From Nitrospirota bacterium (lineage in GTDB: Bacteria > Nitrospirota > Thermodesulfovibrionia > Thermodesulfovibrionales > JdFR-86): 64,000 nucleotides of DNA. Numbering within the stretch: the first letter of the stretch is position 1; each line of letters starts with the position of its first letter. The stretch is from the NCBI GenBank assembly GCA_963721805.1, contig CAVRJY010000001.1:768001-832000 (forward strand), in the 5' to 3' direction. Both the position numbers and the translations under genes were made by a program. The notes beneath the pieces are model-generated. The model did no database searches. It had not been told where the DNA came from and saw only the letters and a list, made by a program, of their open reading frames with translations. Positions 46,797 to 58,841 of this stretch are shown here, piece after piece.

Positions 46797-47120
46797 TCAG
46801 TCCTTGAAAAGGTCCTCGAATTTCTTGCGCGCGTCTTCCTTGTCCTGAGTGCCCCCGCCGCCTATCGAGAGATCTCCGCCCCGAGCCCCGCGCGACTTCG
46901 GAGCGCTGTCTCTGAACTCGAAGAACTCGCAGAAGTTCGCCCGGTCACGCGTGCGCTGGTGCTCGGCCCTGGGCTCGGCGCACTGGTTGTGGCTGCTCGG
47001 GGCGTGAAACCGGCAGTTGATGCAGATGTGAAGGTCTCCACCGCACTGCGGGCAGGTCGCCTTGTGAGAGACGAACCTCTCGATGCTGACTTCCTTGCCG
47101 CACATCACGCACACCTTCAT
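46797..47120 (-). CDS. Small 8-Cys zinc-ribbon-like hypothetical protein
   Basis: CVMC, CPQC, CINC, C, NFC; RBS GAGGAGG; promoter upstream. Confidence 0.8.
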   Translation of the reverse strand: MKVCVMCGKEVSIERFVSHKATCPQCGGDLHICINCRFHAPSSHNQCAEPRAEHQRTRDRANFCEFFEFRDSAPKSRGARGGDLSIGGGGTQDKEDARKKFEDLFKD

Positions 47121-47158
47121 CCCGAAGCCCTCCTCATGGCACATTGACCACGAAAGGC

Positions 47159-47187
47159 ATTATATCCATTCCCCCTCCCCAATTCAA
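47159..47187 (-). promoter_or_regulatory. Sigma70 promoter whose -35 overlaps the end of the repeat element
   Basis: Minus strand TTGAAT-N17-TATAAT. Confidence 0.7.
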
Positions 47188-47442
47188 GGGGCCGACTGGC
47201 CCCTCTCCCTATTCGCAGGGTCACAGACCCCTCTCACAATTCGCGCCACAGCGCTCATCTCTAATCAAAGCTGTTGACCTTCGGGGCGCGGGGGGCTTCC
47301 GTTATCCTCGCCCCCCGAAAGCGCGCCCAAATCGGCTTCAGACAAGGCAGGGCGAGAAGACCGTCCGATGGTGTACTGTGACGTACATAGAGGGCGAGTC
47401 TTTGATGCCCAACGCAGTATCAAGCGATTTGGGCGCGCTTTC
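47185..47442 (-). repeat. Structured dispersed repeat, copy 1 (MITE/REPIN-like or ncRNA)
   Basis: Reverse complement aligns over about 250 bp with 58041-58289; 126-bp imperfect palindrome at 47317-47442. Confidence 0.85.
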
Positions 47443-56810: not shown

Positions 56811-57134
56811 ATGACGCGATCAGCGCTTATCGAGAAGGTGTCAGAGAGGGTCGAGGGCCTCACGCTGAGCCAGACCGAGATAATCATCGAGACGGTCTTC
56901 GACAGCATTCAGGAGGCGCTCGTAAAGGGCGAGAAGGTCGAGATACGAGGGTTCGGGAACTTCCGCCTCAAGCAGCGCCAGCCACGCAAGGCCCGCAACC
57001 CGAAGACCGGGGAGAGCGTCGACGTAAGCGAGAAGCAGGCGATCCGCTTCAAGGCAGGCAAGGCCTTAAGAGAAGCGCTGAATCCCGGCCTCGCCGACAA
57101 AGAAGACAAAGAAGATAAAGAAGAAGAGGACTAA
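56811..57134 (+). CDS. ihfB: Integration host factor beta / HU-family protein with acidic tail
   Basis: VEIRGFG.F, RNPKTGE.V, FK.GK.LR; position after rpsA-sppA. Confidence 0.88.
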   Translation: MTRSALIEKVSERVEGLTLSQTEIIIETVFDSIQEALVKGEKVEIRGFGNFRLKQRQPRKARNPKTGESVDVSEKQAIRFKAGKALREALNPGLADKEDKEDKEEED

Positions 57135-57150
57135 TTTATCCAGACTATAG

Positions 57151-57182
57151 GCCACACCCGGTTATGCCGGGTGTGGTTTTTT
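57151..57182 (+). terminator. Intrinsic terminator after ihfB
   Basis: GCCACACCCGG-TTATG-CCGGGTGTGGT plus T run. Confidence 0.88.
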
Positions 57183-57220
57183 ATTGGCCTTGCAACCCTG
57201 GCCTTACAAGGAGGTACGTT

Positions 57221-58042
57221 ATGGGGCTTTTCACTGTCGAGCGCGAGCTCTGCATGCGCGACGGGGTATGCGCCGCCGAGTGTCCGAGGAAGATCATAGG
57301 CACTGATGCGGACGGATTCCCAATACCGGCCGAGGGCGCTGAGGCGCTCTGCGTGGACTGCGGCCACTGTGTGGCGGTATGCCCCACCGGTGCGATCTCG
57401 CTGGCCCGGATGCCGAGGGAACTCTGCGCCATCATCGAGGACGGCCTCAAGTTGAGTCCTGAGCAGGCCTCGCAATACCTCAAGTCCCGCCGGTCTGTCA
57501 GATCTTACAAGAAAGAGCCGCTCCCGCGCGAGGTGATTCTTAAGATCATGGACATCGTGCGCTATGCGCCCACGGGCATGAATACGCAGGACGTGCAGTG
57601 GACCGTGATCGGCCCCGAGGGCTCGCGGCGCGTCGCGGAGTCCGTGATCGGCTGGATGCGTGCGCTCGTCGCGCTCGGCTCTCCGATGGCCGGGGCGTAC
57701 AACGCCAAGTCCATCGTCGAGGGCTGGGAGGCCGGGACGGACTTCATAATGAGGGGTGCGCCCCAGCTCGTCGTGGCCCACGCGCACAAAGACAACGCCC
57801 TGGCCCAGATCGACTGCACCATAGCGCTGACGTACCTCATGCTGGCCGCTATCCCCTATGGAGCCGGGACCTGCTGGGCCGGGTTCGTGCAGCTTGCGGC
57901 CGCGATGTCCCAAGACGTGCTCAAGTCCCTGGGGCTGCCCGAGGGACATAGGTGCAACGGGGCGATGATGCTCGGGTTTCCGTCCCACGAATTCCAGCGC
58001 ATCCCGTCACGCAAGGAGCCGGTTATTAACTGGGTGGTGTGA
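57221..58042 (+). CDS. Nitroreductase family protein with N-terminal ferredoxin domain
   Basis: CMRDGVCAAECP, CVDCGHCVAVCP, RRSVR.Y, APTG.N.Q, GTCWAG; RBS AAGGAGG. Confidence 0.9.
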   Translation: MGLFTVERELCMRDGVCAAECPRKIIGTDADGFPIPAEGAEALCVDCGHCVAVCPTGAISLARMPRELCAIIEDGLKLSPEQASQYLKSRRSVRSYKKEPLPREVILKIMDIVRYAPTGMNTQDVQWTVIGPEGSRRVAESVIGWMRALVALGSPMAGAYNAKSIVEGWEAGTDFIMRGAPQLVVAHAHKDNALAQIDCTIALTYLMLAAIPYGAGTCWAGFVQLAAAMSQDVLKSLGLPEGHRCNGAMMLGFPSHEFQRIPSRKEPVINWVV

Positions 58043-58289
58043 AAGTGCGTTAAAGTCGCGTGATACGTTGTCACGGCTTCGGAAATCCGTCCTCCAGAGT
58101 ACGTCTCAGTACACTTGCGGACGTTTTCCTCGCCGTTCCTAGTCTGACGCGCTTTATCGCACTTTATGGGGTTGGTCGCGGCTCCGCCGCTGGACCCCAT
58201 GCCCCAAGGTCAACGGCTTTAATTAGAGTGAGCGCGGAGCGCGAATAGGTGAGCGTAGCGAATAGGAACAGGGGCCAATCGGCCCCTTG
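58041..58289 (+). repeat. Structured dispersed repeat, copy 2
   Basis: Homologous to the reverse complement of 47185-47442; 126-bp imperfect palindrome at 58041-58166. Confidence 0.85.
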
Positions 58290-58330
58290 GCACGGTTCTT
58301 GTTTACCTGTCTCGCCCCATGTGTTAATAT
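58287..58330 (+). promoter_or_regulatory. Sigma54-like site overlapping a sigma70 promoter upstream of lptCAB-rpoN
   Basis: TTGGCACGGTTCTTGT (GG-N10-GT) at 58287-58302; TTTACC-N17-TAATAT with extended -10 TG at 58302-58330. Confidence 0.55.
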
Positions 58331-58343
58331 ATAGCCATACATT

Positions 58344-58841
58344 ATGGAAAAAGTTCTGCTGGCCGTGCTGGTTGCGATCGTGATAGTGATACCTATGTAC
58401 CTGGTGGAGACCGCCGAGAGGTTCCAGGGCAGGGGGGACACGGCCTCGATCATAAGCAACGCGGTGATATCGAACAAAAAAGACGGCAAAATCACATGGT
58501 TGATAAAGGCCAATAAGATGTCGATCGCGCCTGACATCTCAAACGCGATACTAAACGGCATAACGGTCGACGTGACCTCGGAATCGGCTAAAGTGGCGGC
58601 TGACCGGGGGGATTACGATTTCGGGACGCGAAACCTGCTGCTTACAGGCGGCGTACAGGCCGTCACGAAGGACCTTGTAATCACCGGCGACACGGCCATG
58701 GTCAAGGCCGAGACCGGCGAGATCACCTCCGATGGCGAGGTCAAGGTCACGGGCAAGAACATCAGTCTCACTGGCACCGGGCTATGGATGCTCGGCAATA
58801 AAATGAAGGTGATAAGAAATGTCAGAGCGGACGTCAAGTAA
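58344..58841 (+). CDS. lptC: LPS export protein LptC
   Basis: N-terminal TM, W.IKA, A..G.Y, G.G beta-jellyroll pattern; precedes lptA-lptB. Confidence 0.8.
   Translation: MEKVLLAVLVAIVIVIPMYLVETAERFQGRGDTASIISNAVISNKKDGKITWLIKANKMSIAPDISNAILNGITVDVTSESAKVAADRGDYDFGTRNLLLTGGVQAVTKDLVITGDTAMVKAETGEITSDGEVKVTGKNISLTGTGLWMLGNKMKVIRNVRADVK

Follow-up and report, generated by a model that had tools for sequence, protein, structure and literature searches.

The window, which is the whole 64,000-nucleotide stretch of DNA analysed here, contains two structured elements of about 250 bp. Copy A is flanked by the divergent pheA (47515) on one side and by a small ORF (46797-47144) on the other, and copy B overlaps the stop codon of a nitroreductase-like gene and has lptC-lptA-lptB-rpoN downstream. 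A sequence-only reading had described two structured copies sharing five modules, and this description is borne out: the reverse complement of 47185-47442 aligns with 58041-58289, and all five modules are present in both. The number of identical bases is 90 of 126 in the long-hairpin core, 25 of 37 (copy A) or 41 (copy B) in the middle hairpin, 18 of 21 or 20 in the linker, and 54 of 74 or 62 in the tail. The fold z-scores of copies A and B are -5.3 and -4.2, and none of 200 shuffled sequences folded as well. The features of the two loci are as follows.

47317..47442, + strand (the folding, purine-rich strand; the sequence-only reading wrote the - strand): long-hairpin core of copy A, 126 bp, with a GTAC-N6-GTAC tip, tandem G.A pairs and a CAAGG/AACGCA internal loop; it scores 79.5 bits on + with the cross-phylum covariance model R2, of which it is a training row
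47280..47316, - strand: middle GGGG..CCCC hairpin of copy A, which differs between the copies
47259..47279, - strand: linker of copy A, GGTCAACAGC-TTTGATTAGAG, the conserved polar end of the main subfamily of this genome
47211..47258, - strand: REP-like tail units 1 (47258-47239) and 2 (47237-47211) of copy A, RTGAG-stem-loop-CGAAT
47188..47203, - strand: terminal hairpin of copy A, GGGGCC-AGTC-GGCCCC, the true end of the tail
47159..47187, - strand: sigma70-like promoter match TTGAAT-17-TATAAT (10 of 12 matches) of the small ORF 46797-47144; host sequence that abuts the tail
58041..58166, - strand (the folding strand): long-hairpin core of copy B, 126 bp, of another core subfamily; its first two + strand bases overlap the TGA stop of the nitroreductase-like gene (57164-58042), and it scores 74.1 bits on - with R2, of which it is also a training row
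58167..58207, + strand: middle hairpin of copy B
58208..58227, + strand: linker of copy B, GGTCAACGGC-TTTAATTAGA
58228..58263, + strand: REP-like tail units 1 (58228-58246) and 2 (58249-58263) of copy B
58271..58286, + strand: terminal hairpin of copy B, GGGGCC-AATC-GGCCCC, terminator-like on the - strand
58288..58302, + strand: TGGCAC-N5-TTG motif upstream of lptC, host sequence

Both elements had been seen to point toward a gene start, and they do so because they end exactly at the promoter motifs of their neighbours: the start lies about 64 nt beyond the tail of copy A (taken by eye as the ATG at 47120 behind GAGGAG) and 54 nt beyond that of copy B. The final TTG, which had been counted as part of the element, belongs to these host motifs. 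In copy A it begins the TTGAAT-17-TATAAT match (read 47187-47159), and in copy B it begins a TGGCAC-N5-TTG motif that is kept in relatives without the element. TGGCAC is retained upstream of lptC in five of seven relatives, and five of the seven have a short spacer only and no element there. We take TGGCAC-N5-TTG to be a sigma54-type consensus. As TGGCAC-N5-TTG(C), it is conserved just upstream of a sigma70-like stretch before lptC-lptA-lptB-rpoN (58288-58340; relatives L222, L223, L224, L225 and L230), and on sequence grounds it could mean that the rpoN operon is autoregulated. The small ORF beside copy A is cysteine-rich and lies behind its near-consensus sigma70-like promoter; Pfam and NCBIfam gave no match for it. 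A metagenome scan with the nitroreductase neighbour of copy B returned no close relative, the best full-length match being 44%.

Several familiar explanations for an element in this position were considered and set aside. A riboswitch or leader was rejected because both tails end at or before the promoter motifs, and an intrinsic terminator of the upstream gene because the T-run precedes the hairpin. A retron was rejected when flanking inverted repeats were not seen by eye. Since copy A lies between two divergent promoter-like sites (that on the pheA side identified by eye), it probably need not be transcribed, and on the written strand the unit has no promoter match ahead of it apart from one weak site that starts at its edge. 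In a search of Rfam release 15 at the gathering score, a tRNA was the sole match in the window; copy A reached a best E of about 1 and copy B gave nothing, so that the Rfam match which would have spoken against the sequence-only reading did not appear.

The description "present twice" holds within the window and fails for the genome, which has 237-240 related loci. In the 2.78-Mb genome, a profile built from both window copies detects 237 loci and extends into the tail in only 26, and a refined core-plus-linker profile finds 240, covering 37.8 kb in all, of which 175 are near full length; a large cluster of near-identical cores is present among the loci. The proposal of a non-autonomous multicopy repeat is upheld, in that the repeat is short, non-coding and present at about 240 loci, as MITEs are short, non-coding and multicopy. 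Terminal inverted repeats occur in the form found in relatives and in a minor subfamily here, and are missing from the 250-bp composite. The minor subfamily keeps a symmetric form with CCTRTCTCAAAA-type inverted ends (C1:175846-176019, 633947-634120 and 898699; C2:75463, 287608 and 542608; C4:94167). It was also correct that neither window copy has a target duplication, the longest flank match being 5 nt. Among the 175 near-full copies, flank matches of at least 10 nt occur in 2 and the rest follow the shuffled control, in a comparison that a 2-bp TA duplication would escape.

What follows the linker is variable. Nothing recognisable is found after 100 of the 175 near-full copies, a module designated T2 after 43, the T1 tail after 22 and a lone small hairpin after 10, where T1 is the tail of TGAG-hairpin-CGAAT units described above and T2 is an origin-like module with GTTCGGAT repeats. 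The T2 module (43 loci, for example C1:43352 (-) and C1:480439 (-)) consists of a TATA-CGCGCG-T-rich block and spaced GTTCGGAT repeats, and usually lies on one side only of an inward-facing core pair; presumably it resembles the primase-helicase replication origins of phage satellites. The analysis does not support the idea that the five modules make up one element. Of 36 T1 clusters, 21 are joined to a core, and for 13 the nearest core is over 300 nt away. On a tree of the cores, the T1 label needs 17 changes for 17 copies, compared to a mean of 16.5 for shuffled labels; this tree holds 147 of the 175 cores (the 28 without a pattern-found core end were dropped) in 125 columns, and many of its forks are unresolved. 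Because the tailed cores are scattered on the tree rather than forming a clade, and because copies A and B fall in different core subfamilies, the 250-bp form is a mosaic and not a lineage. About ten copies have a near-identical linker-tail junction, judged by eye.

The cores are also broken and interrupted in recurrent ways. At C4:138132-138428 and C1:1546416-1546714, a complete 131-nt core sits inside the tip of a second core that has the same orientation. About 14 of 65 partial matches are truncated copies that break at or beside the tip loop (by eye), and several tip-broken copies are tandem half-copies (C1:456398-456634, C4:172687, C4:189266 and C5:87002). The same inserted sequence interrupts cores at model position ~101 (C1:388438, 649225 and 759537; C2:368293 and 398244). 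Elsewhere the right core arm is replaced by two inverted small tail hairpins (C1:382898, 404900, 449115 and 489150; C4:98334), which argues that tail units also insert inside cores. Head-to-tail arrays of 3-4 core-like units with a period of ~120-190 bp are found in Clostridia (L172), in Bacillus (G454:C142:19509-19990) and in this genome (C1:962560-963043).

The elements are real, structured and under selection. The proposed selection on a single-stranded fold is supported by compensatory changes in 16 of 25 pairs within the genome and in 16 of 20 across phyla. In 72 cores, 89% of cells pair, compared to 83% in shuffles and 34-52% in slid controls. For 69 sequences from across phyla, covariation is 0.63 versus 0.22, in an alignment of which 48 of the 69 rows were selected with a pattern in which the letters of the tip and loop are fixed. 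The strand on which the core had been read must be reversed, since the opposite strand folds better in 66 of 72 copies with RNA energies and in 67 of 72 with DNA energies (the energy model is unable to tell RNA from ssDNA). Opposed mismatches on the written strand of the cores are C.T in 265 cases versus G.A in 48. On the folding strand, the core displays the GTAC tip, tandem G.A pairs and a symmetric C(A/T)AGG / (A/G)ACG(C/A) loop; its A.C/G.G loop presumably recalls helix 8 of SRP RNA. In the cross-phylum alignment, G.U-type variation is tolerated on one strand. The tail has T-GA-G opposite C-GA-A on the written strand, and core and tail are therefore of opposite polarity. A single RNA read on one strand, as originally envisaged, is not supported: core and tail have their G.A mismatches on opposite strands.

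The core lies close behind stop codons, in one polarity. Its start lies -1 to 40 nt from a stop codon in 100 of the 175 near-full copies, with gene calls from our own simple predictor, and TAG is over-represented at those stops (52 of 100 versus 32%). In 26 cases the tail faces a converging gene; in 12 of these the terminal hairpin sits directly against the stop codon of that gene, a TAG in 10. An apparent GTAG tag before the core was rejected, the signal being TAG stop codons at variable distance.

Comparison of orthologous sites shows that the core is absent from 18 of 19 relatives' lptC and pheA loci. The single match is in G003, where a core of a different subfamily occupies the lptC site in the same orientation. 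The core was found in none of nine pheA upstream regions of relatives. The G003 pheA upstream site (L232) holds a different repeat, with the same inverted ends and small CGTC-type hairpins. One contig from run X2 spans 58246-58739 with 38 differences and no gap, arguing that a related population keeps the end of tail B. Gene order shifts at copy B (56811-58344 compared with L222-L230): here lptC is preceded by ihfB and the nitroreductase-like gene, and in relatives by a different gene that, by eye, looks like shikimate dehydrogenase. Upstream of pheA, too, the gene differs among relatives.

The core is widespread. A covariance model built from this genome only (R1) matched 15 of 150 other genomes of the order, mostly with many copies, in a search that scored 23 candidates per genome. 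The blank result of BLAST with copy A (0 of 40 relatives) indicates that a covariance model is needed to see these relationships. The form found in relatives is a symmetric, TA-ended hairpin of ~175 bp, mostly with TAGAACCTRTCTCAAAA-type inverted ends, and the linker and tail are missing from the core in relatives and in other phyla alike. Scanning GTDB genomes with a motif gave at least 122 matches. The 80 of these that were examined are mostly from Desulfobacterota, with others from Nitrospirota, Gemmatimonadota, Planctomycetales, Patescibacteria, Bacillus, Clostridia and Alcaligenaceae. R1 gave 43 matches at E<=0.1 within 78 loci from the GTDB scan, and the same strand is preferred in 65 of 76 well-folding GTDB loci. 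With the wider covariance model, five genomes from other phyla each show 3-39 copies; every one of the five had supplied one training row to that model. A Patescibacteria genome of 0.8 Mb (G455) has 36 profile matches, of which 19 pass the motif filter. All 19 fold better on the purine-rich strand and keep the fold, yet no pair is more than 79% identical and median pairwise identity is 65%. A stop codon lies 7-28 nt away in 16 of the 19, behind housekeeping genes and with the polarity seen in the Nitrospirota genome. Such divergence with a conserved fold fits long-term selection at each locus as well as it fits mobility. The hallmarks kept from Nitrospirota to Patescibacteria are the fold, the unpaired loop bases and the polarity behind stop codons.

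The tail has a much narrower distribution. It is made of short GC-rich imperfect hairpins in head-to-tail clusters (56 units listed), and a strict pattern for it has 32 matches in this genome, compared to 0 for a reversed control; no genome among 400 others of the phylum has more than 2. Scans of viral contigs gave no match for either core or tail. As 20-40-nt, extragenic, imperfect, GC-rich, multicopy hairpins, the tail units conform to the definition of REP sequences, and they start like the GII REP 16-mer of SBW25 in the part of PMC3116915 consulted. The resemblance to the REP/REPIN/BIME and RAYT systems (PMC3116915, PMC3333891, PMC3733652) extends to clustering, to mosaics and to C|T ends above chance. 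A T follows the terminal C-run in 30 of 49 tail clusters (p=2e-6); stop codons and -35 boxes, whose first base on that strand is likewise T, confound this signal. Unlike REPs and REPINs, the tail units lack a GTAG tag, are arranged head-to-tail, occur in a genome in which no RAYT was found and are joined to a longer, unrelated hairpin. No GTAG (or CGTC) tag lies 5' of the tail stem, where the bases before TGAG vary (AGAGA, TTAAG, AATAG), and the REPIN layout of two inverted REPs forming one hairpin is not seen in the tail, inverted pairs occurring only as inserts in some cores.

The core family is not new: by eye, it has a published precedent. In Geobacter metallireducens, 24 "predicted short RNA elements" (Gmet_R1001-R1024) were reported as intergenic hairpins of 112-116 nt with unknown function (Aklujkar et al. 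2009, PMC2700814, as far as the consulted part of that paper goes), and the core matches the elements in its Fig. S1 by eye. Hallmarks in common with the depicted elements are CTGCGTT, TACGCCTCCG and GCCTTG, and the central palindrome pattern of Gmet_R10xx is exact at 18 of 19 letters in the core of a Nitrospirota relative (L065). The tips differ, being mostly GTAGC-GC-TGCTAC in the depicted Gmet_R10xx elements and GTAC-N6-GTAC here, and the consulted Gmet_R10xx descriptions are without the middle hairpin, linker and tail that are present here. The core has the CAAGG..GTAC tip..AACGC arrangement together with covarying stems, and on this basis belongs to the cross-phylum family.

By analogy, the architecture of the core is like that of ERIC (IRU/RU-1). 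Both are imperfect hairpins of ~127 nt whose purine-rich strand folds better, according to the ERIC literature in the parts consulted (PMC2229807, PMC3184786, PMC10969869), with a TAC-loop-GTA tip, tandem GA below the tip and an AAG/GCA internal loop 30-31 nt from the tip. ERIC is described in the consulted parts of reviews as having an orientation-dependent effect at gene 3' ends, destabilising transcripts depending on its orientation (PMC2229807, PMC10969869), and the core, likewise a strand-asymmetric hairpin of this length, is found near gene 3' ends. The TA termini of ERIC correspond to the relatives' form, whereas the main form in this genome is without TA-ended inverted termini. Neither covariance model detected ERIC in two distinct copies, which were fetched with a primer motif. 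In the same two-copy sample, ERIC profile scores are 9.3 and 4.2 bits compared to 42-128 for members, with 0-3 of 60 shuffles scoring as high, near p=0.05. Chunjie, a MITE from Geobacter uraniireducens, is, in the consulted parts of reviews, multicopy and highly folded, 178-235 bp long, with 21-bp inverted and 9-bp direct repeats. Compared by that description only, it is like the present element in copy number and folding and occurs in a phylum where the core is common, but it has direct repeats and a target duplication was not found for the element here. A search with a BOX primer motif gave a sole match, a chance coding match. No mechanistic study of the core family was found in the literature searched.

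Candidates for a mobilising enzyme were sought in several ways. In this genome (94% complete) no RAYT is over the cut-off, and the only Y1 genes are six identical IS200 copies (C1:42301, 366622, 1252034 and 1452182; C4:138543 and 146508), inserted after TAAC. The end hairpins of all six differ by eye from the ends of the element, and all six lie within ~1.5 kb of a hairpin element or tail. Searches of the genome for GIY-YIG and tyrosine recombinase proteins gave one 654-aa frame and 7 matches, respectively. Across the order, a RAYT profile is over the cut-off in 46 of 151 genomes and has no such match in four core-positive genomes. No core lies near the RAYT-like or Y1 genes of other genomes at 12 + 8 loci, and six RAYT-like loci read by eye have their own GTAG/GCAG-tagged hairpins with no tail pattern nearby. 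No transposase was found between the relatives' inverted ends in 20 stretches (G067/G002), and no cognate IS with the same ends was found in plasmids or, as paired ends, in 80 viral loci. The terminal-repeat pattern itself gave at least 120 matches, single in each of the 80 listed, and these were taken as chance. Clustering of 353 ORFs beside 103 loci revealed no recurring enzyme. When 755 ORFs from 725 kb of G455 were compared with this genome by BLAST, at least 271 proved to be shared, with no clear candidate among those listed, which by eye are housekeeping or toxin-antitoxin genes.

Neighbouring cores show a further regularity. There are 66 neighbour pairs with linkers facing inward, 50 of them within 3 kb and with a median spacer GC of 0.445, compared to only 5 of 63 outward pairs within 3 kb. 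No T1-tailed copy (0 of 22) and no small-hairpin-tailed copy (0 of 10) has DNA of less than 52% GC beyond the tail, whereas such DNA follows 60 of 100 untailed and 34 of 43 T2-tailed copies (p=1.5e-6). Copies A and B belong to the cargo-free class. Collagen-repeat and phage tail-collar ORFs lie between a T1-tailed copy and its inward partner at one locus (C1:117376-119154; L032:616-2394), which is one of few T1 copies in a pair. A 344-aa integrase-core ORF recurs in several cargo spacers. Pfam searches covering 3 window ORFs and 40 of the 57 cargo ORFs with locus references revealed no shared mobiliser.

Copy number, modularity, covariation, strand polarity, placement and absence at most orthologous sites in relatives can thus be stated from the data. 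The explanation that we favour, with slightly more confidence than doubt, is that a trans-acting enzyme, reading a folded single strand that is probably DNA, copies both parts as non-autonomous repeats, and that these survive in the gaps between gene ends and promoters and are joined locally. Each 250-bp copy would be a mosaic assembled at its own locus, in the manner of a BIME, from two such repeats. One would be the 126-bp polar long hairpin of an old cross-phylum family, which in this lineage may have lost its symmetric, MITE-like TA-ended termini and come to carry the middle hairpin and the GGTCAACGGC linker; the other would be the lineage-specific cluster of REP-like hairpins. The enzyme is envisaged to recognise the folded purine-rich strand through the tandem G.A pairs and the A.A/A.C/G.G loop, and its substrate would most likely be ssDNA, as HUH (Y1) enzymes treat REPs. 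According to the consulted part of PMC3333891, cleavage by TnpA-REP is at C|T and requires a mismatch in the stem, and the enzyme is a proposed source of BIME variability. Copies would be retained where they occupy the space from a gene end to the following stop codon or promoter, and tails would be gained or exchanged at each locus separately. That the family is mobile is inferred from its copy number, from nesting and from the empty orthologous sites, and the mobilisation chemistry by analogy only. The lack of any orientation bias of the copies along contig C1 was counted against this mobile-mosaic reading.

The main rival, possible although on balance unlikely, is an ERIC-like RNA element used by the host, in which the core at mRNA 3' ends or in antisense RNA would set decay, processing or read-through, mobility being secondary or past. 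The position of 100 of the 175 near-full copies just behind stop codons fits such a role, as do the 16 of 19 G455 copies of the same polarity behind housekeeping genes at 65% median identity, the tolerance of G.U-type variation on one strand, and the orientation-dependent destabilisation of transcripts by ERIC. One Geobacter copy is orthologous in two species (PMC2700814, consulted part), and one contig of a relative keeps the end of tail B before lptC. However, the strand that would be within the mRNA of the upstream gene is the worse-folding one, copy A lies outside any obvious transcript, and most relatives are without the element at the lptC and pheA sites. This role may hold in addition to the mobile reading. 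A less probable proposal, and one we regard as improbable, makes the inward core pairs a docking system that holds foreign cargo at the linker end, with the REP-like tail capping the empty state and both window copies being empty docks. The excess of close inward pairs with low-GC spacers and the failure of T1- and small-hairpin-tailed copies ever to face DNA of less than 52% GC fit it, and the G.A strand of the tail has the polarity expected of an inward-facing partner. However, in relatives and in other phyla the core stands without linker or tail, and islets can also gather passively at repeat-rich, tolerant sites, as the six IS200 copies illustrate.

The original proposal of a single 250-nt non-coding RNA family or unit mobile element is largely refuted, and we consider it very improbable. 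The five modules common to both window copies and the recurrent linker-tail junction speak for a unit, but the tail is found in only 22 of the 175 near-full copies, the tailed copies form no clade, core and tail favour opposite strands, and the written strand offers no promoter beyond the weak site at the edge. Least credible of all, and close to negligible, is that the copies are neutral relics, decayed MITEs with stems kept paired only by palindrome repair and gene conversion. Eroded termini, many truncated copies and the failure to find an enzyme would be expected of relics; conservation of unpaired loop bases while paired bases covary would not, and palindrome repair would have removed the strand-specific mismatches (C.T versus G.A) described above.

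Overall, the element is a MITE/ERIC-plus-REP mosaic in which a hairpin family already published, though unstudied, is combined with a local REP-like repeat. A broader conjecture, tentative and rather unlikely as a whole, is that the core represents one branch of a so far unrecognised superfamily of polar hairpin replicators that spans phyla and may include ERIC, with a TAC/GTA tip, tandem G.A pairs and an A.A/A.C/G.G loop. Its members would lie behind stop codons in fixed polarity and be moved by a class of enzyme to which no repeats of this sort have yet been linked, and here they would have acquired a docking end, capped by a REP-like tail when empty and holding foreign genes when filled. 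No paper naming a mobilising enzyme for the abundant ERIC-type repeats was found in the literature searched; with its few genes, the 0.8-Mb Patescibacteria carrier makes a search for a binding protein practical. What the present analysis adds is that T1- and small-hairpin-tailed copies never face low-GC DNA, and this split between tailed, cargo-free copies and untailed, cargo-facing copies provides a direct test of foreign-gene docking by these repeats.
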